A stretch of DNA of 40,783 bases from Thermoleophilaceae bacterium. Its GTDB lineage: Bacteria > Actinomycetota > Thermoleophilia > Solirubrobacterales > Thermoleophilaceae. Positions 2,003 through 36,602 of the stretch are shown piece by piece (position 1 is the first letter of the stretch; every line of letters begins with the position of its first letter). Both the position numbers and the translations under genes were made by a program. The notes beneath the pieces were generated by a model. It saw only the letters and a program-made list of their open reading frames with translations. It did not search any database and was not told the DNA's origin. The stretch spans positions 1 to 40,783 of the forward strand of contig JBOGXS010000050.1 of NCBI GenBank assembly GCA_050693815.1, written 5' to 3'.

Positions 2003-2034
2003 GGGCCGGCTCCGGCTGCCTACGGAGCCGGCCC
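2003..2034 (-). terminator. strong hairpin just after the capsid gene (attenuator/terminator candidate)
   Basis: Perfect 12-bp stem, GGGCCGGCTCCG (2003-2014) with CGGAGCCGGCCC (2023-2034), and an 8-nt loop. It lies 7 nt downstream of the capsid gene stop. There is no clear U-tract. Confidence 0.5.
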
Positions 2035-2040
2035 CGCAGA

Positions 2041-3279
2041 TCAGCCGGTGAGGCCGATCGCCGACGCGTGCGAGCTGCGGCGCTTGGCCGCGAGCTGGCA
2101 CGGGTAGGTGAGGGCGTCCACGAACGAGGTGAAGCCCTGCTTGTAGAGCATCCCACGACTCGCTCCCTGGACCTCGGAGGCCCAGGTCGGCTTGCCGAAC
2201 TTCCCGCCGGTGACGACGAAGAAGTCAGACAGCGTGAGCATGTAGAGCTCACGGTCGGGGATGTCGGGATCGACGGCGATCTCCATGCCGTTCCACTTGA
2301 ACCCGTGCGCGTTGCCGGCGGCGGTCTTGTCGTCGGAGAAACGCACCTGGCTCTGGAACTGCGAGTAGAGCTGCGCCGCCTGGTATGGGCTGGTGGTCAC
2401 GTACGTCGGCCACTTGCCCGTCTTCTGGAACACCTTGCGCTGCAACGTCAACAGCAGGTCCAGGGAGACGAGGGTGGTCGCGGTGTCGACGTGAGCCGGC
2501 ACCCATTGTCCGACCGAGGCCGGGTCGATGGTGCCGACCACCGTGGTCTCCGAGCCGGCCATCTGGCGCAGCCCGTTGGCCTCGTTGGAGGTCGTGCCCG
2601 CCCGCGCGTTGGCAACCGATACGAAGTGGCCGGTGGCGGTGGTGGTCACGGTTGCGCCGTCGATCACGATCGAGGGCGCGGTGTCGGACTCGTTCACGGA
2701 CACGATCGAGCGATCCGCCGCCACCGATGACTCGGAGGCGGTCGTGCCGATGTCGATCAGCATCCCGGGCCGCAGCCAGCCTCGCTCGATCGCGCCGAAC
2801 CCGTACCCCGTGGGGCGCAGGCTCACCGTGTTCGAGGTGGTGGTCGTGGCGCACTCGGCGATCAGCGCGTCCTGGTTGGAGACGAACTGGCGTCCGAGGT
2901 TGCGGCGCATTGCCCCCACGTTGGAGGCGATGGTCTGATCGGCGGCGTCGATCGTGGAGCGCTCGCCGACCGTGTCGGCCTGGTTGAGCGCGCCGGCCTC
3001 GATCTCGACCTGCTGCCATTCGTAGACGAGCGTGTAGTCGGCTCGATCGACGTGCAGGGCGTCGGCGGGGTTGAGCGCACCGCCCGCGGCCGTGTGCGTG
3101 GTGGAGCCACCGGGCAGGCTCAGCTCGACGGGGACCTGAGCCTGGCGGCCGATGGTGTACTTGTTGGTCTTCTCGACCTTGTCCAGCCAGCGGTTCTCGT
3201 TGTAGAACTGGCCTTCGAGGCGGTCCTGAGTCCAGACCTCCTTCAGGAGATCGAGAAGGTTGGCGACTGTCTCTGCCAT
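2041..3279 (-). CDS. major capsid protein (412 aa; HK97-fold inferred, no delta domain)
   Basis: Its size and the portal-scaffold-capsid order support the call. The sequence has no low-complexity regions (MAETVANLLDLLKEVWTQDRLEGQFYNENRWLDKVEKT...) and is followed by a strong hairpin. Confidence 0.8.
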   Translation of the reverse strand: MAETVANLLDLLKEVWTQDRLEGQFYNENRWLDKVEKTNKYTIGRQAQVPVELSLPGGSTTHTAAGGALNPADALHVDRADYTLVYEWQQVEIEAGALNQADTVGERSTIDAADQTIASNVGAMRRNLGRQFVSNQDALIAECATTTTSNTVSLRPTGYGFGAIERGWLRPGMLIDIGTTASESSVAADRSIVSVNESDTAPSIVIDGATVTTTATGHFVSVANARAGTTSNEANGLRQMAGSETTVVGTIDPASVGQWVPAHVDTATTLVSLDLLLTLQRKVFQKTGKWPTYVTTSPYQAAQLYSQFQSQVRFSDDKTAAGNAHGFKWNGMEIAVDPDIPDRELYMLTLSDFFVVTGGKFGKPTWASEVQGASRGMLYKQGFTSFVDALTYPCQLAAKRRSSHASAIGLTG

Positions 3280-3310
3280 GAGGCGTACCTTTCTCGGCCC
3301 TCAACGGCTC

Positions 3311-3970
3311 CTAGCCGGCCGCGAGTTGATCTGCGATCCACTCGCGCCGCTGCTCGGGGTCATCGAGGTTGGGTTGATGGGAGGGACTCGAACCCGTGGG
3401 CGCCTGGGGAGCTCGGCGCTTGCCGGCGACGTAGTCCGAGATCACGTGATCTCGCACGCCCGTGACCTTCTTGAAGGCGGTTTCGACTTCATCGGGGTCA
3501 GAGAGGGCACCGAAGATCAGGTCCACTTCGTCGTCTGAGAGCTCGATGCCCGCCGCTTCGGACAGGCGCTCGATCTCGTCCTCGACGTGATCCTCGATCG
3601 CATCGAGCTCGCGCTCGTGCTCGACTTCGAGCAGCTCATCGACGCGAGGGTCGTAAAGCTCCTCGGGCTCGTCGTCTGCGTACTCGTCGTCGTCGTCTGC
3701 GTACTCGTCGTCCTCGGTCTCCGCAAGGTCGAGGCCCAGGATTTCGAGGGCCTCGGGGTCTCCCTGGCGGGCGAGATCGATGACTTGGCGAAGCTCGGAG
3801 TTCTGCTGAGTGACCCGAGTGAACTCGGGCTGCAGGCTCTCGTAGCGGTTCTGCCAGTCGGTGGGTTCGGGTGAGCCCTCGGCGGGCTCGGGGGCGGGTG
3901 TCCCATCTTCGGGGCCGCTGGGCTCGGGAGGTGGCGTCTCCTGGTTCTCAGGGACCGGCTCGTCGGGCAT
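3311..3970 (-). CDS. scaffolding protein (219 aa, highly acidic)
   Basis: It lies between portal and capsid. The N-terminus is Pro/Glu-rich, and there are acidic runs (ETEDDEYADDDDEYADDEPEELYD) with a helical character. Confidence 0.65.
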   Translation of the reverse strand: MPDEPVPENQETPPPEPSGPEDGTPAPEPAEGSPEPTDWQNRYESLQPEFTRVTQQNSELRQVIDLARQGDPEALEILGLDLAETEDDEYADDDDEYADDEPEELYDPRVDELLEVEHERELDAIEDHVEDEIERLSEAAGIELSDDEVDLIFGALSDPDEVETAFKKVTGVRDHVISDYVAGKRRAPQAPTGSSPSHQPNLDDPEQRREWIADQLAAG

Positions 3971-4039
3971 CGGATGCTCCTATGGGTAGGGCGGGGCCGC
4001 GGGGGCGTGTCCGCCGGTTTGGGTGGGTGCCGGGCCGCT

Positions 4040-6025
4040 CTAGGCGGGTGTCGGCGGGGGGGCGTCGCCGTTTGGCGACGGCAAGCTTGGGGTGCCCTTC
4101 TCCTGGGGCTTGGCGGCGTTTTGCATGCCGTAGCGCTCCGCCTGGGCCTCCTGGGCCATCTGCGCTTCCTGGGCCTTCTGAGCCTCCATCTGCAAGACGC
4201 CGGCATAGATCACCGCCGCCACGTTTTGCATCGACGGGGGCAGTTGCTCGAACTCCTCCGTCTTCATCCATTGCTCGAAGCGGTCGCGAAAGACGGCCAG
4301 GTTGTCGGAGTAGCGGGGCATCCACCCGGGGGCGAACTCGGGGCTTCCGTCCGGCGCCGTGCGCCCGGAGGGCAGATTCGGCATCTCGCCGACCGTGCCC
4401 TGCTTGATTCGCTGAATGATCCGCCCCGCGCGGGCCTCATCACGGGCGAAGTTGTTGATCACGGCCTCCCCGGCGCCGGTCTCGATCGCCGTCATCGCCT
4501 CCTGCGGGCCGATCCACCCCATCTGCGCGTAGGTCATCAACCGCTGCTCGATCGCCTGCTTGGTCCGCGGCTCGATCGAATCGGTGAACACCCGCACGTC
4601 CACCTGCCCGCGCAGGTCCGCGCCCTTGAAGTCGTGGATCGACTCCCACCCCCAATCCCCCTTGATCTGCAAGAGGCGCGGCTCGGTGTAGTTGTCCTGC
4701 ACCTGCACGAGGCAGTCGTGGGCGAGGCGGCCGTGGAAGTCGGCAAGCTCTGCGATGAACAGCGCCGAGCGGGCCTGGTTCTTGTCGAGCAGCGCCTGGA
4801 TCGCCTTCCCCGACTCCACCCCGGAAGGGAGGTCGTTCTGCCCCGCGATCCGCAGCAGGTCTTCTCGGGCGCGGTCTGCCATCGAGAACAGCTCGGGCGG
4901 GATCGAGGGCGTCTCGATCACCTTGAAGTTGCGGTCGGGGTCGGGGATCTCATACACCTTCCCCGGCTCGTCCGACCATCGCTGGCGGCCCATCAGCCCC
5001 GGCGGCACGACCACCCGCGGGATCAGGCAATGGTTCTTCCACTCCACCGCCTTGGATTCGGCGTCGTTGACGGTGCGGTTGGCGTCGAGGAGCTGCGAGA
5101 CGAGGCCGAGGTCTCGATCCGAGTCGGGGTCGGGCGCGTAGGAGAGCTTTCGCAGCACCGGCTGCTCGCCCTGAGAGGGGTAGAGGCGCTCGGGCACGAT
5201 CTGACGCCCGTTGGCGATCGTCAGCCACCGCCCGTAGGGGTATTTGGGGCAGGGGCGCTCGAGGTAGTCGGTGACGAGGACGAGGGAGGCACGGTCACCC
5301 TGGTTTCGCCCCCGCGAGGACAGCGAGCGGGCGGCGGCGTCGGGGGTGAGCTTGCCGCCGAAATAGCCCTCGCCCTGCATCACCTGGTCGATCGGGCGGG
5401 CCTGCTCCACGGCGTGCCACGGCGAGCGGTCGAAGCGAAGCCCCGGCTCCCAATAGCACTCGTTGGAGCCGAAGATGCGCACCCGCACATCGCCCTGACC
5501 TACCGTGCCCTGCTCGTCGGAGAGAAACGGCCCGATGGTGGTGTCGAAGAAGGGCCAAGCGAACGCCTCGCCTCCGATCACGGCGTGGATCACCGCGTCC
5601 GCGAGCGCCCGGCGAAGCTCCCAGCGGTGATAGCCGTACAGCGCCACCTTCTCGGCCAGCGACGCCGCCGCCACGTCGGAAGGGTCCGAGGTCGAGGGCA
5701 CGACCTGATAGGAGGGCACGCGCTGGGTCGCCTGCGCTGCCTCTCGCAGGACCACGTCGAAGATGAAGTTGCGCGACTGGCGGGCGCGCCAGGTGGGCTT
5801 CCCCGGCCCGCGCACGCCCACCGCGCCGTCAGCGAGCGTCTGCAGCTTGCCCCGCGGGTCGACGTAGACGAAGTGGTTGCCGCGGTAGAACTCGAACGCC
5901 TCGTCGCGGGCGGGGGCGATCGATTGAAGGCGCTCGCGGCCTCGGTTGAGCTTCGCCAGGAACGCCTTGTCGAGCTGGGTCGGGTCCTCGATGACCGCGC
6001 GCCTTGCCCGATCGAGCACCGCCAT
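4040..6025 (-). CDS. portal protein (661 aa)
   Basis: Its size and its position upstream of scaffold and capsid support the call. The C-terminal tail is Q/A-rich (EAQKAQEAQMAQEAQAE). Confidence 0.75.
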   Translation of the reverse strand: MAVLDRARRAVIEDPTQLDKAFLAKLNRGRERLQSIAPARDEAFEFYRGNHFVYVDPRGKLQTLADGAVGVRGPGKPTWRARQSRNFIFDVVLREAAQATQRVPSYQVVPSTSDPSDVAAASLAEKVALYGYHRWELRRALADAVIHAVIGGEAFAWPFFDTTIGPFLSDEQGTVGQGDVRVRIFGSNECYWEPGLRFDRSPWHAVEQARPIDQVMQGEGYFGGKLTPDAAARSLSSRGRNQGDRASLVLVTDYLERPCPKYPYGRWLTIANGRQIVPERLYPSQGEQPVLRKLSYAPDPDSDRDLGLVSQLLDANRTVNDAESKAVEWKNHCLIPRVVVPPGLMGRQRWSDEPGKVYEIPDPDRNFKVIETPSIPPELFSMADRAREDLLRIAGQNDLPSGVESGKAIQALLDKNQARSALFIAELADFHGRLAHDCLVQVQDNYTEPRLLQIKGDWGWESIHDFKGADLRGQVDVRVFTDSIEPRTKQAIEQRLMTYAQMGWIGPQEAMTAIETGAGEAVINNFARDEARAGRIIQRIKQGTVGEMPNLPSGRTAPDGSPEFAPGWMPRYSDNLAVFRDRFEQWMKTEEFEQLPPSMQNVAAVIYAGVLQMEAQKAQEAQMAQEAQAERYGMQNAAKPQEKGTPSLPSPNGDAPPPTPA

Positions 6026-6300: not shown

Positions 6301-6867
6301 TTACCGAATCGCGGGGTAGGTGATCATTGGAGGGACAGGGACGTGACGCACGATGCATGGTGTGCCATGCTGGGTGTAGTGCACCGTCAGCTCGATGTGA
6401 TCAACGGCTGCGTTGGTGGCGCTGCCGACTTCATACGAGCACGCCACCACAGCGCCGAAATTGGCGCTGTTCACGTCTGACGCGGTCCACGTCTCCCCCC
6501 ACAGATCCGCGTCCCCTCCGTAATTCACGACCGAATCCACCGTCGGCCAAATAGTCACCAGATCAGCCTTATCGACGGTTCCGATGAAGCCGTCTGCCTT
6601 GACGACTCTGATCCTCTGATCGTGAATGTCCGCGCCTGTGCTCGCACGTCGACGCTCGACCGAGACCACGATTCCCGTGATGACAGCATCACTCGGAACT
6701 CTGAAACCAAAGCTCTGTGCCTTGAGGTAGTTGCTGCCCAGCGAGCCCGGGTCAACGAAAGAGGTTGAGTCGTCGGAAGCCACGATTCTTTCCGGACTCG
6801 ACCACGCAACCGAGCCAAAGCCAACGTCGTTTGTGCCCAGTCCGGCGGGACGGGTCTGCTTAGCCAT
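6301..6867 (-). CDS. hypothetical virion protein (188 aa)
   Basis: ORF-track entry with a non-repetitive, beta-rich-looking sequence. It lies between terL and the portal gene. Confidence 0.5.
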   Translation of the reverse strand: MAKQTRPAGLGTNDVGFGSVAWSSPERIVASDDSTSFVDPGSLGSNYLKAQSFGFRVPSDAVITGIVVSVERRRASTGADIHDQRIRVVKADGFIGTVDKADLVTIWPTVDSVVNYGGDADLWGETWTASDVNSANFGAVVACSYEVGSATNAAVDHIELTVHYTQHGTPCIVRHVPVPPMITYPAIR

Positions 6868-6895
6868 CGCCTCAGTCCCGCAAGCCAGCCATGAC

Positions 6896-7204
6896 CTACA
6901 TCCCCAAAGCGAGGAAGCTCACTCCGTCCCCGGAGACCGTCGCGTCGCAGAAGATCGTGGAGAGCTGGGCGATGTTGAGGGTGATCGCCTGTCCGGCTTC
7001 CAGGAGCACGCCGCGCTCGGCGCCCACAGCGGCGTCCACGTTGGCGTCGCCAATCGCGATCACGCCGGTGTTGTCGGACTCGGCCTGGATCGTCACCGAG
7101 ATGATCCGGCCCACGTTGCCCGAGAGCACCCCGGGGGTACCGGCGGTGGCGACGACCTTGCGCCCGGTGGTGATCGTGGAGGCGGGGTTTTCGAGCAGGC
7201 CCAT
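6896..7204 (-). CDS. hypothetical small virion protein (102 aa)
   Basis: Only the C-terminal 102 codons of track ORF 6896..7687 look coding (MGLLENPASTITTGRKVVATAGTPGV...). The ATG at 7204-7202 shares one base (7204) with the TGA (7206-7204) of the upstream gene, a TGATG junction. Confidence 0.55.
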   Translation of the reverse strand: MGLLENPASTITTGRKVVATAGTPGVLSGNVGRIISVTIQAESDNTGVIAIGDANVDAAVGAERGVLLEAGQAITLNIAQLSTIFCDATVSGDGVSFLALGM

Positions 7205-7509
7205 CAGACGGCCCCCGCGAGCTCGGCCTCGAGCTCGCGATAGGTGGCGAGCTTGTCCACACGCGCTCTCAGCGCTTCGATCTCCGTCTCCATCTCGGCG
7301 AGGCGGGCGAGGTGGCCTTCGACCTCCTCGCGTGAGACCCAGCCGAGCAGACGGGCGATCTCCTTCGCGGCGGCGATCGAGAGGTCGACCGGCTGATCCC
7401 AGCCGGTGAGCACACGGCCCGTGGAGACGAAGCCCTCGGGGTCGGTGGTGCGATCGGTGATCGCGCAGCGCAGGCTGCCGTTCAGTTGGGAGGGGGGCAC
7501 GATGCGCAT
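7204..7509 (-). CDS. hypothetical protein (101 aa), coiled-coil C-terminus
   Basis: ORF-track entry immediately downstream of terL. Confidence 0.5.
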   Translation of the reverse strand: MRIVPPSQLNGSLRCAITDRTTDPEGFVSTGRVLTGWDQPVDLSIAAAKEIARLLGWVSREEVEGHLARLAEMETEIEALRARVDKLATYRELEAELAGAV

Positions 7510-7521
7510 TGGTTCCTTTCG

Positions 7522-9963
7522 TCAGGTGAGAGAGCCGAGCGGCGGCACCGAAGCGGGACCGGCCCGGTCGAGCCAATCGGCAGGGGGGGCGTGGCCGGGG
7601 CGCCATTCCGAGCGGTGCCCGGACGCAGGCCCGCTCGGGACGTTCCACGCTCGGCCGAGCAGGACATAGCGGAGGGCGTCGAGACAATTGCGGACGAGAA
7701 CGCCGTTCGCCAGGTACTCGGGGCGCCCGTAGACGGTGAGCGCGTAAACGTCAGCGCTGGGCGCGGGCGAGCTTCCCGCCACACGAACGGGAACAAGTCT
7801 GAATCCGGGCATAGCGGTTGACGCGGAAGATCGCTTCACACCAAGCGCAGGTGCGGTCTTTATCGTCAACTCCGCCGGCGCGGCGCCACGCCGCCTTGCA
7901 TGCGTTCGAGCAGAAGCGGTTTGAGTCGCGACGGACGATGGAGTCGAACTCCGCTCCGCATTCCTCGCAGACGTGGCGAACAGGCTCACGCTTGGCCCAT
8001 GCCGCCTGGCCGTGTTGACGATGCCATTCACGGCCTTCCGGCGAGCGGTGCCATGCTTTCGTGAGCGATCGAATCGACGCCGCGTGGTCGCGCGATGCCG
8101 CTGCACGCTCCTCGGTCCAATGCTCGGCGGCGTGCTCTGCGGGCGACAGGCAGACGAGGTTGGGGAGGTCGTTGTTGAGGGGGTTACCGTCGCGGTGGTG
8201 GACGTGGTGGCGGTCGGGGATCGCCCCGTTGTGCGCCTTCCAAATCTCGCGGTGAAGGTAGTCCACGCCCTGCTTGCGATCCGCAATCCCCGGCGTGTAG
8301 TAGACCCGGTTCGTTCGGTGCGGAGAATCGGGGTAGCGGTAGAAGCGCTTGCCGTTGAAGATGACGACTTCGGCCATGTGAGGACCATATCACCGTAACG
8401 AAGAGCATCCAAGCGTCTAAAGCCCTGGCCCTGGACCCAAACCGGGTGGTCGTCGGTGCCTCTGAGCGTTCGGCCGTCTTCGAGGCGCAGCACGCGCGTG
8501 GGCGCGGTTCGCGTCCTTGCGGCTGCGATCACGGGCGCGTAGCCATCCCGAGTCCACACTCGATCGGCGAGCTTCACGTCCTCGACCGGAACTTCTCCCC
8601 GCTCCGTGCGGATCAGGGTGCCAGCGACGAAGCAATGGTCGTCGCGCTTCACCGCCGCGAACTCGTCGGAGGAGCTGGGGTCCTTGCGATAGCGACCGAA
8701 CTCCCAAATCAGGGTGGGGCAGTCGCGGGAGACCGCGAGGCCCTTGTGCTGAAGGCGGCGCTTGACCTCGAAGATGCCGGCGGCGCGGTCGTTTTGGCCG
8801 GGGATCGTCGGCACGCCCGCGCGCAGGTAGGCCGACTCGATCGCCTCGGCGTTGATCGTCTGGCGGTTGCGGGCCGAGGGGTCGATGACCGCGTAGGCGG
8901 GCTGGATGCCCCAGGCGGCGTTCACCGCCTTGATCTTGCGCGCCACCTCCTCGACGGTCTCCTGGGCGGGGTAGAGCTCGCAGAAGACGAGCCCTGTGTT
9001 GTCCTGGTCGAAGGCCACCCACACGACCCCGGTGCGGTTGAGGCCGGGGTCAATGCCGAGCACGATCGTCTGCTCGCGGACGTGCTCGGGGCTCGGCGGC
9101 TCGATCAGATGGTCGTCTGAGAACTCGGGGTAAAACAGCCCCGAGAAGTGGACGAAACGCCCTTCCTTTCGCGCCTGGCGCTCCTCATTGGAGAGCGAGG
9201 CGAAGAACTCGGCCAGCGCCTGCTGGTTGATGTGGGGGTTCTCGGTCGAATCGACTTGGACGATCGCGATCTCGGGGTCGAGGCGGTGCTCCCAGATCAC
9301 GTCGTAAGACCACGAGAGCCCGAACAGCGGCGTCCAGGTCATCTTGAAGTCGCCGTCGTAGTCGACCAGGCGGGCGAGGTTCTCGTGAAAGAGCGCCAGC
9401 CCCTTCTCGCCCTCCGGCTCCTCATCGAAGTGACAGAAGTGAAGCGCGGCGCCGGAATGGGAGTCGAGGTCTTGATCGAACGAAAGGAACTGCAGGGTCG
9501 AGCCGTTGGCGAACTCCAGTATCCGCCGCTGCTTGGAGAACGCCGACTCCCAGGAGCCGTCGCGCAACTGCGCCTTGGGCACCCACTCACGGATCGCGGG
9601 GAAGATCACCTGCTCGATGTTCTCGTTGAACTTCGGCGCCACAATCCGCCCGAAGGTCGGCGGCTCCCACTTCTTGTAGGGGCGCAGGTGGGCGGGGAGG
9701 CAGTCCTCGTCCACGAGCTGGATCAAGTCATCGACCACGCCGCCCGCGGTCTTGCCCGAGCGGTTGCCCCCGACCAGGCCCTTGATCTTCGCCCTCTGCG
9801 CGTGGAAGGTGAGCTGCTTGGGGTGGCGTCGGGGGGAGTCGGGGTGGTTGTAGCGAAGCAGCGGGTTGAGCTCGTGGGCGTGGCGGTACTCGGCCAACAG
9901 CTCCTCGGCTTCCTTTCGCTGCTCGTCGGGGAGGGCGGCGAGGCGCCGCAGGTCGATGTTCAT
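7522..9963 (-). CDS. terL: terminase large subunit precursor (813 aa; about 497 aa after intein removal)
   Basis: The true start is the ATG at 9963, in an ATGA overlap with the upstream gene. The 69-codon extension in the track is Arg-rich junk. Motifs present: Walker A VGGNRSGKT, Walker B HFCHFDEEP, and nuclease motifs IDPGLNR and DDH / CLDALRY. The gene is interrupted by an intein at 7687..8634. Confidence 0.95.
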   Translation of the reverse strand: MNIDLRRLAALPDEQRKEAEELLAEYRHAHELNPLLRYNHPDSPRRHPKQLTFHAQRAKIKGLVGGNRSGKTAGGVVDDLIQLVDEDCLPAHLRPYKKWEPPTFGRIVAPKFNENIEQVIFPAIREWVPKAQLRDGSWESAFSKQRRILEFANGSTLQFLSFDQDLDSHSGAALHFCHFDEEPEGEKGLALFHENLARLVDYDGDFKMTWTPLFGLSWSYDVIWEHRLDPEIAIVQVDSTENPHINQQALAEFFASLSNEERQARKEGRFVHFSGLFYPEFSDDHLIEPPSPEHVREQTIVLGIDPGLNRTGVVWVAFDQDNTGLVFCELYPAQETVEEVARKIKAVNAAWGIQPAYAVIDPSARNRQTINAEAIESAYLRAGVPTIPGQNDRAAGIFEVKRRLQHKGLAVSRDCPTLIWEFGRYRKDPSSSDEFAAVKRDDHCFVAGTLIRTERGEVPVEDVKLADRVWTRDGYAPVIAAARTRTAPTRVLRLEDGRTLRGTDDHPVWVQGQGFRRLDALRYGDMVLTWPKSSSSTASASTATPILRTERTGSTTRRGLRIASRAWTTFTARFGRRTTGRSPTATTSTTATVTPSTTTSPTSSACRPQSTPPSIGPRSVQRHRATTRRRFDRSRKHGTARRKAVNGIVNTARRHGPSVSLFATSARNAERSSTPSSVATQTASARTHARRRGAAPAELTIKTAPALGVKRSSASTAMPGFRLVPVRVAGSSPAPSADVYALTVYGRPEYLANGVLVRNCLDALRYVLLGRAWNVPSGPASGHRSEWRPGHAPPADWLDRAGPASVPPLGSLT
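7687..8634 (-). mobile_element. intein (316 codons) in the TerL nuclease domain
   Basis: Cys1 is TGC at 8634-8632. Block A is CFVAGTLIRTERGEVPVEDV and block B is GTDDHPVWV. Blocks F/G read DVYALTVYGRPEYLANGVLVRN. Asn is at 7689-7687 and Cys+1 is TGT at 7686-7684. The exteins join as ...AVKRDDH|CLDALRYVL. Confidence 0.9.
7751..8377 (-). CDS. HNH endonuclease (208 aa), nested inside the intein in a different reading frame
   Basis: It has its own ATG and TGA. The HNH core is HHVHHRDGNPLNNDLPNLVCLSPAEH, followed by two CxxC...CxxxC zinc modules. (8377-7522+1) is not divisible by 3, so the gene is out of frame with terL. Confidence 0.85.
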   Translation of the reverse strand: MAEVVIFNGKRFYRYPDSPHRTNRVYYTPGIADRKQGVDYLHREIWKAHNGAIPDRHHVHHRDGNPLNNDLPNLVCLSPAEHAAEHWTEERAAASRDHAASIRSLTKAWHRSPEGREWHRQHGQAAWAKREPVRHVCEECGAEFDSIVRRDSNRFCSNACKAAWRRAGGVDDKDRTCAWCEAIFRVNRYARIQTCSRSCGGKLARAQR

Positions 9964-10427
9964 GAGCACACCCAGTTGCTCGCCCCGGCGCCGCCGTCGT
10001 ATAGCCGCGCCGCGATCCGATGGTGAGCGCGCTTGTCGACGACGTCGGCGATAGGGAACGGCCTCCCCCACATCGGCATGAGCTGGTACGGCCCGGCAGC
10101 CCCCGAGCCGTTGTAGGCGCCCCACGAGCCGCCCGACTCGCAGGCGACGATGTAGGCGGGGATCGCCCAACAGCCCCCGAGCCCGCTGTAGACGGTGACG
10201 CCCGCGATGCAGTCCGAGCGCTGTTGGCGACGGTGGCGCTCGAAGCGGCGCTCTCGGCGGTCGCGGTAGCGCCCGATCGCAAGCCGCACCGGGCGGTGGA
10301 GGATCGCTCGCCGGTGAGCCTGCCAGCGGCGCTTCTCGCCTGGGCGCACCGGGGTCGGGTCGCGCCAGCGGTCGAGGTCGTGCGCGCGGCGGATCAGCGC
10401 CTTCGCCCGGTGGCGGTGGTGGGCCAT
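9960..10427 (-). CDS. Rpf/transglycosylase-like domain protein with a basic N-terminus (155 aa from the ATG; possibly longer)
   Basis: The segment IPAYIVACESGGSWGAYNGSGAAGPYQLMPMW matches the CESGG...Q transglycosylase-like (Rpf) signature. The stop overlaps the terL ATG (ATGA). A signal-peptide-like segment lies upstream in frame but has no canonical start codon (see findings). Confidence 0.65.
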   Translation of the reverse strand: MAHHRHRAKALIRRAHDLDRWRDPTPVRPGEKRRWQAHRRAILHRPVRLAIGRYRDRRERRFERHRRQQRSDCIAGVTVYSGLGGCWAIPAYIVACESGGSWGAYNGSGAAGPYQLMPMWGRPFPIADVVDKRAHHRIAARLYDGGAGASNWVCS

Positions 10428-23315: not shown

Positions 23316-23515
23316 TCTCCCTCTCGGTCATAGGGCTTCGGTCGCGCCGGCCAGGACCAGTCGATCGCGTCGAGGGCGGCGTGCATCGCATTGAGGGGAG
23401 CGAGGTGGGCGCGCGTAAGATCGACACCCGCGAAATTGGCACGCGCGATATTGGCGCTCGTGAGGTTGGCGTTCGCGAGCGCGTCGAGGCGAGCGATCAC
23501 CGCGGGACTCCTCAT
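23312..23515 (-). CDS. short pentapeptide-repeat protein (67 aa)
   Basis: The repeat segment is [27 protein letters not shown]. Its ATG overlaps the integrase stop (ATGA). Confidence 0.65.
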
Positions 23516-24567
23516 ACGACGACCTCCTCAACAACGCCGAAGACCTCGGCCCTGGCCGCGCGGATCGCGTCCTCGAAGCGGCCCCTCGACTCCATGACGA
23601 GGTGGGCGTAGGTCCGGTCTTGCACCTGAAGGGAGTGGCCCGCCTGCTCTGCCGCCTCGACCCGGGAGACCTCGGGGTCGCGGAGCATCATCGAGACGTA
23701 GAAGTGGCGCAGGTCATAGGGGCGCATCCCCGGCGGGGCAACCGCCCCCCATACGCGCCGACGCCAATTGGCCCAGTTCGCGCGGGTGAGCGCGAGCTCG
23801 CCTTGGGTCACGAAGACGTTGGGGCGAGGGGGGCAGGCGCTCTTGTGGTCGGCCAGGTCGGCGACCAGCGGCGCGAGCATCTTCACGGCCCGATGGCGCC
23901 CGGTCTTCTGAGAGCGGACGAGGATGGTCTGCCCGCGAACGTCCTCCCAAGTGAGAATCCACGCCTCCTGGGGCCGAAGCCCGGCGTAGGCGAGCGCCGA
24001 GATCAGGTGAGCGTCGGCGGGACGCCGGCAGTCGAACAGGGCCTTGCGGATGCCCTCGACCTGCGCCGGTGTCGGCGGGTTGATCGGCTCGGCGTCGGGC
24101 AGCTTGGGCTTTCGGGCGAGCTGAGCGGGGTTTCCCTGCGTGTAGCCGGCACGCATCGCGTGACAGAAGACCTGGCTGAGAATCCCGAGTGCCTTTCGCT
24201 TCGCAGTCGGCCCCGTGTCCAGTCGGGCGAGCCACAGCTCCACGTCGGCGACCGTGACTTCGCCGAGACGGCGAGCGTCGAAGGTGGGCAGCACATGGCA
24301 GCGAAGAAGCTGCTCGTAGAGCTGCGCGGTGCGCGGGGCGGTGTTTCGCCCGTGGCTTGCCCACCATTCCGCGGCGACCTCGCCGATCGTGCGGCTCGAC
24401 GCCTGCAACTGGGGCAGGTAGCCGAGGCGCTTGGCGCGACGGACCTCATCCTCGTAAGCGCGGGCGAGGGTGATCTCTCCCCGCTCGAACGTCTTCGCCC
24501 GGTGAACGCCCGCGCCGTCGCGGTAGCGCACCTTCAACCTGCCTCCCGGCAGCCGTTGCAAGCTCAT
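23512..24567 (-). CDS. int: tyrosine integrase (351 aa)
   Basis: The N-terminus is SAM-like. The catalytic region has RPQEAWILTWEDV..., YDLRHFYVSMML and GHSLQVQDRTYAH (the R...HxxR...Y pattern). It lies directly downstream of xis. Confidence 0.9.
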   Translation of the reverse strand: MSLQRLPGGRLKVRYRDGAGVHRAKTFERGEITLARAYEDEVRRAKRLGYLPQLQASSRTIGEVAAEWWASHGRNTAPRTAQLYEQLLRCHVLPTFDARRLGEVTVADVELWLARLDTGPTAKRKALGILSQVFCHAMRAGYTQGNPAQLARKPKLPDAEPINPPTPAQVEGIRKALFDCRRPADAHLISALAYAGLRPQEAWILTWEDVRGQTILVRSQKTGRHRAVKMLAPLVADLADHKSACPPRPNVFVTQGELALTRANWANWRRRVWGAVAPPGMRPYDLRHFYVSMMLRDPEVSRVEAAEQAGHSLQVQDRTYAHLVMESRGRFEDAIRAARAEVFGVVEEVVV

Positions 24568-32201: not shown

Positions 32202-35200
32202 CTAGTCGCCGAACACCTGCTCGAAGGCGCCGCCGGAGCGTGAGCGGGAGGAACGCCCTTCGCCGTTGAACACTTCCTCGAAGGCGCCGCTGCGCTCGCG
32301 TGAGCGCTCCCCGCCACCGAACACCTCGTCGTAGGCGCCAGCGCCGTCCTCCTTCTCCGCCGGCTCCTGGCCGAACTGCGCCGGGGTCACGAGGGAGAAG
32401 AACTCATCGATCGCCTGCTGGGTCGCGGGATCGTCTGCGAGCCCCTCCGCGCGGAGGATGCGCTGAAGCTCGTCGCTTGCCTCCTGAGCATCGCGTATCT
32501 GCGACGCGGCCCTTCGCCCCTGGCGCCGGCCGGTGCGCTTGGCGTCGGCGCCCGCCTCGACCGCGGGAACGATCTGCTCGCGGATGATCCCGGAGATCTC
32601 CGGCTTCTCCGAGGCGTCGAGCAGGCGGCCCAGCGCCGCCGACTGGCGCTCTCGACGCAGGTCGCGCACCACCACCGGGAGCGTTGATTCGGCGAGCGAG
32701 AGGTCTTGGTCTGCGATCTTGCGAAAAAGCTTTGCCACCGCGGAGTCCGAGCGCAGCCCGAGCTCGTCCTGATAAGCGCGGCTGATCGGCGAGAGGCCGA
32801 GGAGCTGGCGGGCGATCAACGTCGTCGCGGGCTCGGAGGTCGGCTCCCCGGTGAACGGGTCATAGCCGCCGACCGCCGCCAGAGCGGTGCCGATGGCGGG
32901 TTGCAGCGGACGGGCGAGGGTCGCGAGGTTCATGTCTCGCGAGCCGCCGCCAATCGCCTCGATGAGCGCGTTCGCGCCGGGGTTGAAGCGGGCGGTGTCG
33001 ATGGCCTTGATCGGCTCGCCTTCTTGACCCGAGTGGGTGACCGCGAGGCCGTACTTGGTGAACAGGCTCGGCGGGCCGCCGAGCAGCTCCTCCAGCTCCT
33101 GGGCGTTCTGCTGGGCGAGGTTCAACAAGATCATCGCCTTGATCGGATGACGGCGGGGCAGGCTGACGAAAGCCCAGCGAAGCGAGAAGCGAAGGAACGG
33201 GTAGAAGACGGTGACGGCGGCGAGGCCGCGCTCGCGCGAGGAGAGCGTCACCCAATCGCCGAGCGTGTCGCGTACGCCCCGAGCGATCTCCTCGGCTGCC
33301 TCGGGGTGGCGGGCGTAGTAGCTCACCTGCTCGGGGAAGGAGAGCTTGCGAAGGCGCTCGGTGTGCAGGGAGGTCTTTCGGTCCAGCCCGGCGAGGTCGG
33401 CGAGGAAGCTCTTCACGCGAGGCTGGCGAAGCGCCTTCTGATTCTCGACCAGGGCAGTCATCGTCCGCACCCATCCCTCGTACTCGCGGTTTGCCTTCAT
33501 CAGCGGCCCGCCGCGCTTCACCTGCTCGCCGACCGCGCGAAGCGCTCGTCCCGCCGGTGTCTTCTGCGCGACCTCGGCGGCGCGGGAGAAGTTGCGAACC
33601 GTGTCGGGCTCCAGCCCGGTCGCCGTCTGGCGGCGCATGAGCACGTCGGTCGAGGTGCCGCCGAAGTGGGCGCGAAAGGCGGCGCGGTGGGTGCGCGGCA
33701 CTTGGCGCCAGTCGGTCAGCACCTGCTTCGCGGCCCGCGCCCACAGGATCGGGTTCGGGTGGGCGACAAGGGCGGCGAAGGGGGAGGCGACCAGCTGGAA
33801 GGCAAACCAGGCGGGGGAGGTGGCGAGGATCAGGGCGGACTGGATGTGGCCGAGGACGCGCAGGCGGCGGACGGCGGTACGCGGCGGCGCCATCTGCGCC
33901 CCGATCTCGCGCAGGGCCTCCTCGGGCACGACGATGTACTTCTTGCCCTTCTCCTGCTTCGCGTCGTGAAGCTCCCGACGCATGGCGGCGATCCCCTCGT
34001 CGGTGGTCATCCCGGCGAGCTGCTCCCACTTGCCGCGTGCCAGCGTGCGCTCGAACTGCTGCACCGGCATCACCGTGTAACCGCGCGGGATCGCGCCGCC
34101 GCGTTCGAGCTTTCGCGCCTGCGGGCCGGTGAAGACCGTCTTCGAGTTGATCTTCAACCGCTCGCGGTTTGCGAAGTCGCGCCACATCCGCCGAAGCTCC
34201 ATCGCCCTGCGGGTGGCGTAGAGGTTGTGAAACAGCGCTGCGGCCGACTCGTCTATGCGCCCCTGCTCGGCGAGGACGCCCCGGCGGCGCTTGATCTTCG
34301 CCGGCACCTTGCCGCCGGGGAAGTCGCCGAGGACGTTGAGGCGGCCCTGGTCGGACACGTCGATCTCGCGGGCGAATGTCGGTTGGGTGACGGCGGGGTC
34401 GCGCTCGATCGCCTGCAGGGTCTCCTCGATGAAGGCCGCGTTGGCCCGCTCGTTGGTCGCGATCTGCTTGCGGCGGGTCGCCATCGCCTGCTGGCGCAGG
34501 TCTTGGGCTTCGGCGCGAAGGCCCTCCCCTTCGAGGCGGGTCGCCTCTCGCTCCAGTCCCTCTGCCTTGCGAAACACCTGCTGGCCCTCTCGGCGTGCCT
34601 CACGCTGGGCATTCTCCCGTGAGGCTGCGCGGGAGGCGCGAGAGAACGCCTCGGTGGCGGGCATCCCTCGGCCGCGCAGCTTGCGATAGCGCGTGCGCCG
34701 CGCCTGGCGCTCCTCGGGGAGCAGGATCTCCTTCTCGCGGGCGACGTGCATGAGCCGGGCGCGTTCGAGCTGGGGGTCCGGTCCCTTCGCCTCGGGGCCG
34801 AGGCGCTCGCGGTGAAGCTCCTCCGAGCGCCCGCGCTCGAGCTGGGCCAGCCCGGCGAGAGCCTCCCTGAGATCGGTGTCTGCGAGCACGTCGGGGTCGC
34901 GCTCGACCTTGCGAATCAGCGCGTCGAGGACGACCCTGGTGGCGAGGTCGTCGGGGTCGATCTCGGCCGTCGAGGCACGCAGGCCCGCTCGGTGCGCGCG
35001 CAGGCGCTTGAGCGTGCCCTCGGGGTCGTCGGGATTGTGCCCCCGGCGCATGAGGATCTGAAGCGTGTCCGCCAGGGAGACGTCGTCGGCGATCTTCTTT
35101 CGGCCCAGCTTGGCGATGGTCTTGTCGAGGCGTGCCTCTCGCATCTCGGCGGCGCCGACAGCGCGCTCTCGCTCTCCCGTCATCCCCACCTCCTCGGCCG

Positions 35201-36602
35201 TGCCCTTCCTCTCGCGGTGGCGGCGAAGCGCTGGGGCGGGCCTTTGCGTCTCGCGCTTCACCTTCGCCTTCGCCCGGCGGCGCTTGGCGGGGTCGGGGCT
35301 TTCGATGTCGCGGGCGGCGCGGGGGGCCTTCGGCGCCTTCGCGGCGCCCTTGAACGGCTTCGCGAACGCCAAGCCGGTGAGCCCGCCCGAGATCACCGGG
35401 ATCAGCCCAACGTCCTCCTGCACGGCCTTTGTGTCGCCCTCCGCGACCCGGGCGACGGTCTCCCAATAGTGCTTCTGGGCTTCGAGCTCCCCTTCCAGGG
35501 GTTCGAGGCTTCCCGTGCGCGCGGCGTCGACCACGTCCTTCGCCGTGCCGACCACACCCGCCGCGATCGACGGCAACACCCGCCCGGTGGTCTTGATCGT
35601 GCGAAGCGGCTTGCCCTCCTGCACGTCCTCCTTGATCGCTGTCGCGGTGGTGGCGCCGACGGCGGCGGCGGTGCCGGCGACGGCGGGAGCGCCGGCACCG
35701 ATCTGCGCGACGGTCTGCGCGCGGCGCACGCGGCGGTTGGAACGCCCCGCCCGTGAGTAGCGTGCCTTGGTCTCGGCCTTCGCGCGCCGGACCTTGACCT
35801 TCGCCTCCGCCTTGGAGCGGGGCACCTTGCGGGTGCGGCCCTCACGCTTGGCGCGAGCCTTCTTGGCGGCCTTTCGCCTCGGCCTCCCCTTCTGGCCCTT
35901 TGTGACCGGCTTCACCTTCTGGCCGGCGGAGCGCTTGGCGGCGCGGGCCTCTGTCTTCGCTACCCCGGTGGTCGCCTTGGCGGCCTTGGAGCCGCGGGTG
36001 ACGGCCTTGACCACGCGAAGCGGGGCGAGTGCCCTGCCCGTTGGCAGGATGCCCAAAGCAACCTGCGTGGCGGAGGGGTCCTCGGAGCCGTAGAGGGCCT
36101 TGCGGGCGGCGGCTGACGCCTCCTCGTCCACGAGGCCGACGACGCCGCCCGCCAGCAGGCGCTCGGCGAAGCTCGACTCGTCCTCGTCGGGAGGCTCGAT
36201 CTCCCCGCGCTCGATGCCCTTTCGCTTCTGGCGCTCGGCACGAACGCGAAACTGCTTCGCGGCGGGCTCTTCGAGGCGCTTGACGAGCGCCCGGCTCTGG
36301 CGCCGGTGCTTTCGCTCCCGAGCGCTTCGCTTCGCCTTGCGTGCCGCCTTCTTCTCCTTGGCGACGCCCTCGCCCCCGAGGATCGCGCGAGCTGAGGTCG
36401 AGGCGCGCTTCGCCGCGCGCTCTGCCTCTCGCTCTGCCTTCTTTGCCCGCTTGGCGGCGGCCTGCGCCTTTCTGACGCCCTCTCCCCCAAGCACCGCGTT
36501 CGGGGTCTGGACCTTCGGCTTCTTGCGCCGGACCTTCGGGCGCTTGGAGGTCTTGCGAACGTCCTTGCCTCCGAGGGTGGCTCGGGGGGTCGAGTAGGCC
36601 AT
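32202..36602 (-). CDS. giant internal virion / ejection protein (1466 aa)
   Basis: The longest ORF in the window. The first ~480 aa are hyper-basic. It has predicted TM-like segments (ALILATSPAWFAFQLVASPFAALV, GLAAVTVFYPFLRF) and motif triplets at both termini. Its position is analogous to the large core proteins of podoviruses. Confidence 0.6.
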   Translation of the reverse strand: MAYSTPRATLGGKDVRKTSKRPKVRRKKPKVQTPNAVLGGEGVRKAQAAAKRAKKAEREAERAAKRASTSARAILGGEGVAKEKKAARKAKRSARERKHRRQSRALVKRLEEPAAKQFRVRAERQKRKGIERGEIEPPDEDESSFAERLLAGGVVGLVDEEASAAARKALYGSEDPSATQVALGILPTGRALAPLRVVKAVTRGSKAAKATTGVAKTEARAAKRSAGQKVKPVTKGQKGRPRRKAAKKARAKREGRTRKVPRSKAEAKVKVRRAKAETKARYSRAGRSNRRVRRAQTVAQIGAGAPAVAGTAAAVGATTATAIKEDVQEGKPLRTIKTTGRVLPSIAAGVVGTAKDVVDAARTGSLEPLEGELEAQKHYWETVARVAEGDTKAVQEDVGLIPVISGGLTGLAFAKPFKGAAKAPKAPRAARDIESPDPAKRRRAKAKVKRETQRPAPALRRHRERKGTAEEVGMTGERERAVGAAEMREARLDKTIAKLGRKKIADDVSLADTLQILMRRGHNPDDPEGTLKRLRAHRAGLRASTAEIDPDDLATRVVLDALIRKVERDPDVLADTDLREALAGLAQLERGRSEELHRERLGPEAKGPDPQLERARLMHVAREKEILLPEERQARRTRYRKLRGRGMPATEAFSRASRAASRENAQREARREGQQVFRKAEGLEREATRLEGEGLRAEAQDLRQQAMATRRKQIATNERANAAFIEETLQAIERDPAVTQPTFAREIDVSDQGRLNVLGDFPGGKVPAKIKRRRGVLAEQGRIDESAAALFHNLYATRRAMELRRMWRDFANRERLKINSKTVFTGPQARKLERGGAIPRGYTVMPVQQFERTLARGKWEQLAGMTTDEGIAAMRRELHDAKQEKGKKYIVVPEEALREIGAQMAPPRTAVRRLRVLGHIQSALILATSPAWFAFQLVASPFAALVAHPNPILWARAAKQVLTDWRQVPRTHRAAFRAHFGGTSTDVLMRRQTATGLEPDTVRNFSRAAEVAQKTPAGRALRAVGEQVKRGGPLMKANREYEGWVRTMTALVENQKALRQPRVKSFLADLAGLDRKTSLHTERLRKLSFPEQVSYYARHPEAAEEIARGVRDTLGDWVTLSSRERGLAAVTVFYPFLRFSLRWAFVSLPRRHPIKAMILLNLAQQNAQELEELLGGPPSLFTKYGLAVTHSGQEGEPIKAIDTARFNPGANALIEAIGGGSRDMNLATLARPLQPAIGTALAAVGGYDPFTGEPTSEPATTLIARQLLGLSPISRAYQDELGLRSDSAVAKLFRKIADQDLSLAESTLPVVVRDLRRERQSAALGRLLDASEKPEISGIIREQIVPAVEAGADAKRTGRRQGRRAASQIRDAQEASDELQRILRAEGLADDPATQQAIDEFFSLVTPAQFGQEPAEKEDGAGAYDEVFGGGERSRERSGAFEEVFNGEGRSSRSRSGGAFEQVFGD

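Follow-up and report, generated by a model that had tools for sequence, protein, structure and literature searches.

How can a phage gene remain one uninterrupted open reading frame (ORF) when a second, complete gene occupies its interior in a different frame? The question is raised by terL, which codes for the large subunit of the terminase (TerL), in a contig from a Thermoleophilaceae bacterium (NCBI GenBank assembly GCA_050693815.1, contig JBOGXS010000050.1), of which positions 1 to 40,783, hereafter the window, were analysed. An initial annotation, made from the letters alone, had placed a 316-codon intein in terL and, in the slot where inteins carry their endonuclease domain, a whole gene for an HNH endonuclease in another frame. 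Our analysis makes it probable that the locus is a composite selfish element, namely a cis-splicing class-1 TerL intein whose slot holds a separately translated HNH homing endonuclease gene in the −1 frame. The window is an ordinary, mature member of a large family that stably keeps this out-of-frame layout.

The terL intein and the gene within it

The terL product matches the terminase large-subunit profile phrog_2 (E 1.1e-20), and the Walker A motif GNRSGKT can be read directly in its translation. No DNA-level match to the terL region was obtained by blastn against 50,697 phage records; relatives were reached through protein searches alone. A search of 5.8 billion proteins with the precursor returned about 260 TerL relatives, mostly of 486-520 aa and without insert; a word-indexed protein search with the 316-aa intein gave five hits, the candidates being swamped by the low-complexity linker. 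In the resulting alignment, 14 intein-free relatives (about 490-500 aa) read ...KKDDH/LLDALRYV... (the slash marks the junction), and the window together with four insert-bearing relatives (P0002, P0003, P0017 and P0023) reads DDH/C...N/CLDALRY. The Cys+1 of the window takes a position held by Leu in the intein-free alleles, and deletion of the 316 intein residues restores colinearity with them; in the relatives L171 and L172 the intein-less terL site is GACGACCAC/CTTCTCGACGCA. The alignment thus fixes the same DDH/C junction as had been proposed, and the limits of both terL and the insertion agree with the initial annotation to the base (Table 1).

The terL frame contains the sequence elements expected of a class-1 intein, in keeping with the splicing blocks first read there: a nucleophile at position 1 (Cys1, TGC 8634..8632) within block A (CFVAGT), the TxxH of block B (T60-D-D-H63, in GTDDHP), blocks F and G (DVYALTV...GVLVRN), a terminal Asn316 (AAT 7689..7687) followed by Cys+1 (7686..7684), and a precise in-frame insertion. 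H63 and P64 are invariant in the alignment that covers them. Pfam Hint_2 matches the N-terminal half (E 1.2e-9), and Intein_splicing bridges both halves, yet below its curated cut-off; in-house hidden Markov models (HMMs) of the two halves match as well (Table 1). When the AlphaFold model of the intein was compared with mini-intein crystal structures using Foldseek, gp41-1 (6QAZ, E 1.3e-6), Mtu RecA (3IFJ, template modelling (TM) score 0.84) and the Ssp DnaB and Npu DnaB mini-inteins were retrieved (TM up to 0.85 on target), and the two halves are predicted to fold as one Hint domain. The terL-frame text of the slot between them has no domain match and is predicted to be disordered.

Read in the other frame, the same DNA yields a protein that matches HNH_3 (PF13392, E 3.9e-15, above the cut-off) and, over its full length, the HNH endonucleases of phrog_15471 (E 4.9e-40), which bears out the proposal of a complete, separately framed gene in the endonuclease slot. 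Its ATG begins in intein codon 86 and its TGA ends 21 codons ahead of the C-terminal junction. The HNH_3 match occurs in the +2 frame only, outside the intein polypeptide, which sets the locus apart from a canonical bifunctional intein; terL is a single minus-strand ORF that stays open all the way from its ATG (9963) to its stop (7522), which sets it apart from a fractured gene with a split intein. As had been anticipated, ribosomes making the terminase precursor have to read straight through the overprinted gene, since the terL frame stays open.

All family-invariant residues, the HNH core included, are retained in the window protein; H60, H61, D63, N68, N69, N73, H82 and H86 are invariant in 35 HNH sequences. 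Two Cys4 clusters (C137/140/156/160 and C177/180/195/199) form C-terminal modules that resemble FCS/YacG-type zinc ribbons. The AlphaFold model has a mean pLDDT (predicted local distance difference test score) of 95.4 and consists of several small domains (predicted TM score 0.56). A Foldseek search of the Protein Data Bank with this model gave nothing significant (best E 0.17); by profile comparison, the nearest solved relative of the core is I-HmuI (1U3E, E 0.01; HNH residues 41-117 against I-HmuI residues 54-130), a phage-encoded, site-specific nicking HNH homing enzyme of Bacillus phage SPO1. Where the 3' end of the HNH gene runs into the C-terminal Hint half, both frames are modelled with confidence (pLDDT ~97 for HNH residues 190-208, >85 for intein residues 278-295). 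Elsewhere in the window, an ORF at ~16.7-17.0 kb (minus strand), which starts with MTCPECSESFEPKAPHQTYCSKPCAKRAESRRYKARKR, has a zinc ribbon like the first Cys4 module of the HNH protein (HMM E 0.0097).

Ribosomes reading through terL would produce an 813-aa precursor in which the shifted HNH DNA gives a disordered loop of ~187 residues, as the open frame and the structure model suggest. Hint residues 1-90 and 278-316 would fold around this loop and class-1 splicing would follow, with an acyl shift at Cys1, transfer to Cys+1 and cyclisation of Asn316. The conserved residues and the predicted fold point to a 497-aa TerL as the splicing product, its nuclease motif restored as ...DDH-C-LDALRY.

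Table 1. Positions of the terL intein, its nested gene and other window features
Feature	Position	Strand	Remarks
terL precursor ORF	7522..9963	minus	813 aa + stop; N-extein, intein and C-extein in a single frame
N-extein	8635..9963	minus	443 aa; ATPase and most of the nuclease domain; ends ...AVKRDDH; from alignment with intein-free relatives
Intein	7687..8634	minus	316 codons, Cys1...Arg315-Asn316; junctions from sequence and alignment
N-terminal Hint half	8365..8634	minus	residues 1-90; pLDDT 85-94; in-house Hint-N HMM E 5e-38
terL-frame linker	7804..8364	minus	residues 91-277; S/T/R/A-rich, stop-free, unconserved as protein; pLDDT ~28
C-terminal Hint half	7687..7803	minus	residues 278-316; pLDDT 85-93; in-house Hint-C HMM E 4e-19
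C-extein	7525..7686	minus	54 aa; Cys+1, then the conserved nuclease-domain motif LDALRY; from alignment
HNH endonuclease gene	7751..8377	minus	208 aa + TGA; frame +2 (−1) relative to terL; HNH_3 core and two Cys4 zinc ribbons
Dual-coding stretch	7754..7803	minus	last ~17 HNH codons (final zinc ribbon and helix) over the first beta-strand of the C-terminal Hint half
Shine-Dalgarno-like GGTGA	8390..8394	minus	12 nt upstream of the HNH ATG; from the conserved Y-G-D codons (RYGD) of the Hint N half
P22-type portal	4040..6025		window gene
Major head protein	2041..3279		window gene
Tyrosine integrase	23512..24567		window gene

A constant phase across the family

With the window HNH protein as query, tblastn detected homologues (31-44% identity) beneath annotated single-ORF terL genes, carried by Tetrasphaera phage TJE1, Acinetobacter phage Highwayman, Clostridium phage phiCDHM19 and Rhodobacteraceae phage LS06-2018-MD07. 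In all four, the HNH ORF lies between Hint blocks A/B and F/G at the +2 offset, also where GC is as low as 31%; counted with the window's relatives, five GenBank phages share the layout. From IMG/VR, a profile scan yielded at least 540 HNH relatives, of which the best 80 were retained, and 86 viral loci were classified with the Hint-N and Hint-C HMMs. In 72 of the 86, both Hint halves were displaced by one base downstream relative to the HNH frame, and the frame spanning them was open (stop-to-stop stretches mostly of 700-900 codons); two more have the same layout interrupted by contig ends, ten are free-standing HNH genes, and in the last two the Hint halves are there, with the host frame broken. 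Scanning one genome per prokaryotic species gave 59 long HNH matches, 28 of them in the same continuous layout and seven further ones with a weaker C-terminal match, in hosts that include Streptomyces, Nocardiopsis, Corynebacterium, Glycomyces, Chloroflexota, Nitrospiraceae, Bacteroidota and Patescibacteria. The initial annotation had asked whether related TerL inteins carry their HNH in frame: none does among the 86 viral loci or the genome loci examined (~145 loci in all). Similarly, no in-frame fusion is present among the 120 listed of 153 HNH matches in the 5.8 billion proteins, all of which measure 168-301 aa.

Loci with the nested layout range from 0.28 to 0.70 in GC content. Ten of the spanning ORFs were sampled with Pfam, and nine belong to terminase large-subunit families (Terminase_6N, Terminase_3/3C, T7-type); the tenth, L081, has intein and LAGLIDADG domain matches only. 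The 71 complete nested inteins are 270-364 aa long, and all of them begin with Cys1 and end with Asn, followed by Cys in 65 and by Ser in six. Within the TerL nuclease motif D-x-H-x-x-D-A-x-R-Y they are inserted in three registers next to one another. The continuous nested layout was also seen in four contigs of archaeal metagenome-assembled genomes (MAGs) ascribed to Thermoplasmatales, Methanosarcinales and Woesearchaeota (L109, L136, L137 and L140; 28-34% GC); provided that these contigs were binned correctly, archaeal viruses carry the element as well, with the caveat that phage contigs may be binned into MAGs.

This recurrence bears on a possible sequencing or assembly artefact. In principle, a pair of compensating indels close to 8377 and 7751 could suffice to disguise an ordinary in-frame HNH intein, and the window is an assembled contig. 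The same offset is found, however, in ~100 independent loci from isolates, viromes and MAGs; the 948-nt intein alignment of the window with its closest relative, L086, is gapless; an ATG and a TGA of its own delimit the HNH gene, precisely where the slot begins and ends; and the protein matches listed hold no in-frame fusion. A Logan contig (L089), which may derive from the same sample, is moreover 100% identical to the window over 8.4 kb. The pair of indels that had been named as a refutation of the out-of-frame layout is excluded by the constant offset and the gapless alignment, and the probability we would give to a sequencing or assembly artefact is negligible.

Across the family, the host frame is open far beyond chance. 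For the window alone (68% GC), 59.5% of synonymous-codon shuffles of the HNH gene also leave the terL frame open. For the 71 nested loci taken together, which were chosen for their open frame, the shuffles predict 128 stops in the terL frame and none was seen; in the third frame, 1146 stops were observed against 1198 expected. Individual low-GC members, phiCDHM19 and L081, reach a shuffle P <=0.001 on their own. A fairer count takes the viral loci with both Hint halves in the terL frame, of which 72 of 73 are open, and the free-standing relatives provide a natural control, with 1.9 stops per 100 codons in the terL-equivalent frame.

We further counted nucleotide differences by terL codon position in ten moderately related intein pairs. 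At positions 1/2/3, these numbered 207/168/391 in Hint-N and 27/12/54 in Hint-C, and 329/656/426 in the HNH slot; the peak thus falls on terL position 3 in both Hint halves, whereas in the slot it falls on terL position 2, equivalent to position 3 of the HNH codons. The window and L086 differ in the same manner (Hint-N 29/19/49, slot 40/105/57, Hint-C 0/1/10), and the phase switch recurs between the window and L088. It follows from this switch that the slot evolves in the manner of an HNH gene, the terL frame there being only kept stop-free, and that the HNH frame is under purifying selection.

Proposed production, mobility and origin of the endonuclease

How the nested gene might be translated is suggested by its start sites. 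In the 71 nested loci the HNH start codons are 56 ATG, 12 GTG and 3 TTG. A Shine-Dalgarno (SD)-like match of >=4 nt precedes 55 of the 71 starts, compared with 45 of 232 internal control codons, and a match of >=5 nt precedes 33 of 71, compared with 12 of 232; slippery heptamers lie near only four of the 71 starts, and none was found in the window. These start codons, the SD-like enrichment and the scarcity of slippery heptamers make internal initiation the best reading of HNH production, and frameshifting unlikely. A programmed −1 frameshift, giving a fusion of TerL-N, Hint-N and HNH with no internal initiation, would accord with the −1 frame of the HNH gene, which is the direction of many phage frameshift signals, and with loci such as TJE1 in which the HNH frame is open far upstream of the ATG. 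In the window, however, this frame opens only four codons before the ATG, and no stable RNA fold was predicted at the HNH start (z = 0.84); set beside the start-site statistics, this leaves frameshifting very improbable.

Equivalents of the window's GGTGA, formed by conserved Tyr/Trp-Gly-Asp codons, were also observed in L012, L022, L023, L024, L044, L071 and L080. Since these codons make the GGTGA, one stretch encodes part of Hint and doubles as a possible ribosome-binding site. Other ribosomes on the terL mRNA would initiate at ATG 8377 and yield the 208-aa HNH protein, in an amount governed by the weak start signals of its gene, a step suggested by the selection on its frame and by the family-wide start and SD signals.

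Alternatively, the HNH ORF could be a dead relic, the locus being in effect a fixed, vertically inherited mini-intein with a long loop of junk, from which no endonuclease is produced. The weak SD-like sequence of the window and the lack of a visible promoter would suit a relic, the atypical penultimate residue of the intein (Arg315) hints at relaxed constraint, and HNH loss does occur, as the existence of same-site mini-inteins of the same Hint type in the TerLs P0242 and P0244 indicates. Yet substitutions between the window and its nearest relatives gather at HNH third positions (105, against 40 and 57), the invariant catalytic and zinc-binding residues are all intact, the HNH model reaches a pLDDT of 95, and the 208-codon ORF is open in all members, whereas the third frame is rich in stops. 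We therefore regard a relic as quite improbable and retain a gene that is expressed and under selection as the preferred reading.

The distribution of the parts fits a homing element. The window extein is nearest to intein-free alleles (67-60% identity) and further from intein-bearing ones (55% and 53%), and no HNH of the window's family was found within the ~9-11 kb fetched on each side of terL in the intein-free relatives L171 and L172. Divergence of the HNH and of the Hint sequences is correlated (Mantel r 0.47; 0 of 2000 permutations reach r), which fits the two travelling as a unit with some reshuffling. The endonuclease would nick or cut an intein-less terL near the DDH/LLDALRY site in mixed infections or in phage-prophage encounters, and repair would copy intein and HNH gene into it, as the patchy distribution and the analogy with I-HmuI-type enzymes suggest.

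Could the HNH protein instead mainly serve the phage, as a packaging or cos-cleavage nuclease or as a weapon against co-infecting phages, with nesting in terL coupling its expression to packaging? Free-standing copies do stand beside packaging genes: directly upstream of terS in Acinetobacter phage BP10, after terL in L035, beside the portal gene in PAE1, and near the start of the CL2 record. Zinc-ribbon HNH nickases next to terminase genes are, besides, common and have been proposed as packaging aids (PMC3592412). The lack of a family member in the ~9-11 kb fetched to either side of terL in L171 and L172, however, indicates that the HNH is dispensable for the window's terminase lineage; distribution is patchy among closely related TerL alleles; the core is of the HNH_3 / I-HmuI homing type and not of the HK97 gp74 type; and the HNH travels with the intein into several unrelated TerL families. 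A principal role in the service of the phage is thus improbable. In L171, an uncalled ORF (6808..7350) ~1.5-2 kb upstream of terL contains a small HNH-like motif (HVHHIVPL...CVACH) and a similar zinc ribbon; its position is like that of terminase-associated HNH genes, and its family differs from that of the window HNH.

Several observations weigh against the composite element as we describe it. Splicing could be slow or impaired in the window, because its penultimate residue is Arg, as the initial annotation had pointed out and the translation confirms; Arg occupies this place in one of the 71 family members sampled, His or Ser being usual. The SD-like GGTGA of the window is weak and its spacing long (12 nt), and a promoter and terminator scan together with RNA folding around the window HNH start gave nothing beyond chance. 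Taken alone, the open terL frame of the window is statistically unsurprising (P ~0.6). The viral loci were ascertained by HNH similarity (best 80 of >540), with a few near-duplicates among them, and only five seeds went into the Hint HMMs. The co-divergence of HNH and Hint is only moderate, possibly through reshuffling, and we infer splicing, internal initiation, nuclease activity and homing alike.

Other states of the same parts were encountered as well. P0242 (525 aa) and P0244 (549 aa; L090 4001..5650) are TerLs with mini-inteins of ~125-130 aa, of the same Hint type and without HNH, inserted in the same TerL nuclease motif as in the window, one register later; they may be ancestors or HNH-loss derivatives. 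Among free-standing copies, the HNH of L035 (1260..1862) begins directly after the stop of an intein-free terL, and that of L082 (~3900..4760) lies between duplicated terL 3' ends, with RYDLCNFEYTTFK[S/N]LGHYQK on both sides; in both, the would-be terL frame is stop-free across the HNH. In 9-10 genome loci, whose hosts include two Peptococcus simiae isolates and one Limosilactobacillus, terL is broken into two ORFs and the HNH lies between the Hint-N and Hint-C halves. This layout, in which an ORF for TerL-N and Hint-N ends in a stop and is followed by the HNH ORF and then by a short Hint-C and TerL-C ORF that overlaps the HNH 3' end, was seen in L118 (P. simiae; 2024..4266) and L126 (1916..4185), and also in L103, L120, L121, L124, L127, L129 and L131. 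In L053 (2252..3220) both Hint halves stand in the usual frame, with five stops in the linker frame, and L085 (2668..3645), likewise broken, has a more divergent Hint pair at the other frame offset; natural split inteins, decaying copies and assembly errors are all conceivable for the two.

The initial annotation took the locus for a possible snapshot of a homing endonuclease gene (HEG) of the free-standing kind in the act of invading a mini-intein. As a description of the window this does not hold, the layout being old, stable and widespread, with signs of purifying selection and of HNH-Hint co-divergence. As an origin for the family, capture of a free-standing HEG by a mini-intein still fits, and is sensible in view of the free-standing copies, the mini-inteins of this type and the fractured terL genes around the same HNH, all of which were found. 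A bolder reading, to which we would give slightly less than an even chance, is that overprinting is the selected end state of a large, old TerL intein family, perhaps spanning the bacterial-archaeal divide, in which in-frame fusion is disfavoured. It would explain the lack of in-frame members among the ~145 loci and the protein matches listed; were it true, the slot would shelter the expression of an HNH gene that is translated independently, overprinting would be no transitional accident, and the HNH family would give living examples of all the other stages of the "splicing-first" model of intein evolution, namely free-standing (next to terL), nested, split and mini-intein forms.

As for the surroundings of terL, the window has the look of a phage genome of temperate type, ~41 kb long and 68% GC, with genes mostly on the minus strand, among them one for a DNA methyltransferase (for others see Table 1). 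Its largest gene is a 1466-aa ORF (32202..36602, minus strand) with no PHROG match at E <=0.001. A 155-aa gene (9960..10427, minus strand), whose product has a lytic-transglycosylase/Rpf-like motif, YNGSGAAGPYQLMPMW, shares the 4 nt ATGA with the start of terL, and a longer terL ORF back to TTG 10170 (7522..10170) is probably spurious because it overlaps this gene. P0019 (829 aa), from the same TerL lineage as the window (59% extein identity), has no intein at the DDH site and a different one, with LAGLIDADG-like motifs, at TPLFGL/C...GN/SWSY, where the window has an uninterrupted TPLFGLSWSY; in L081, a LAGLIDADG-type insert is found together with the HNH-bearing intein. Inteins thus target TerL at several sites.

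Relation to known inteins and endonucleases

Inteins are usually taught as bifunctional, with an in-frame endonuclease, as mini-inteins or as split inteins. A large family with an always-separate, overprinted endonuclease would change this picture: an intein could act as a "landing pad" that splices out, hosting a free-standing homing gene with which it never fuses, and the family would be testable material on how inteins gained endonucleases, the cultured carriers TJE1, Highwayman and phiCDHM19 making bench tests possible. An intein with a disordered insert of ~190 residues and a dual-structured stretch of ~17 codons may also be useful for intein engineering and for the study of overlapping genes. 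The nested HNH is annotated in none of the loci retrieved with gene calls; because gene callers miss it where the long terL ORF is called, the family is largely invisible in protein databases.

The nearest solved relative, I-HmuI, differs from the window HNH in being encoded by a group I intron and in having other DNA-binding modules, where the window protein has two C-terminal zinc ribbons, and the likeness in overall fold is weak (Foldseek E 0.73). Compared with the packaging HNH of the HK97 gp74 type, the window HNH is nested and not adjacent, and it matches HNH_3 (PF13392) only, although some of its free-standing kin adjoin terS or terL.

The view of the initial annotation that known arrangements are either in frame or split has been overtaken by a 2025 bioRxiv preprint (Gosselin; 10.1101/2025.01.02.630785), which describes actinobacteriophage inteins with endonucleases antisense or in another frame, among them an endonuclease VII-like gene "in frame 3" of TerL inteins, and proposes capture of free-standing HEGs. 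As in the window, the two Hint halves share the frame of the exteins, the slot is occupied by a complete endonuclease ORF on the same strand, the host frame is stop-free, and its predicted structure across the slot is unrecognisable; the terminase large subunit is one of the four types of host protein with such non-canonical endonucleases. The preprint's enzyme is, however, endonuclease VII-like (IPR004211; motif DHDH...GLLCNDCN) in inteins of ~265 aa, whereas the window has an HNH_3 enzyme with two zinc ribbons in 316 aa. Its cases come from PhagesDB actinophages and are called rare, whereas the window family has >540 viral matches, many bacterial phyla and some archaeal MAGs; and it expects drift into frame or decay, whereas no in-frame member of the window family was found. 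The endonuclease VII-like sequences were absent among the tblastn matches of the window HNH, and identity of our family with them, or with the in-frame HNH inteins of the preprint, was rejected via its supplementary alignments. The latter inteins (~255 aa, HNH assigned to IPR002711) are unrelated to the window family.

In the searchable open-access and bioRxiv literature we found no description of the HNH family, or of its carriage by TJE1, phiCDHM19 and Highwayman, and none of PMC5418858, PMC3592412 and PMC6293099 describes an HNH nested in terL. Out-of-frame endonuclease inteins were first reported in 2025, and the nuclease family, its breadth, the constant phase and the lack of in-frame forms appear to be new.

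Fractured genes, in which a split intein has a free-standing HEG between its halves, were described by Dassa et al. in 2009 (PMC2677866), with one terminase locus among them and a model that starts from HEG invasion of a mini-intein. There too, an endonuclease gene of free-standing type stands between a Hint N half of ~88-105 aa and a C half of ~33-54 aa. Their HEGs are, however, GIY-YIG and Vsr-like and not HNH, and the host ORF of the window is continuous, so that its splicing would take place in cis, with no need for trans-association. The window's HNH family does occur in the fractured layout, as in P. simiae L118, a combination that is not in that study.

In the dCTP deaminase intein of cyanophage CL131, which self-excises in E. 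coli and consists of HintN and an in-frame HNH_3 (PMC6293099), an HNH-type nuclease likewise interrupts Hint at the same structural position, and HNH_3 is shared with the window. There the nuclease is a domain of the intein, whereas the window encodes it as a gene apart, with a start and a stop of its own in a different frame; CL131 was absent among the tblastn matches of the window HNH. The ShiLan domain, reported by the same group as the preprint (Arsenault et al. 2025, PMC11855218), is a hidden third-frame HNH in DNA methylase genes of mycobacteriophages. It resembles the window in a host frame that is stop-free across the HNH, in a patchy, homing-like distribution and in the question that it raises about translation of the hidden ORF. 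Hint and splicing motifs are absent in that case, and the read-through peptide therefore apparently stays in the methylase, whereas in the window a complete intein surrounds the read-through and should remove it.

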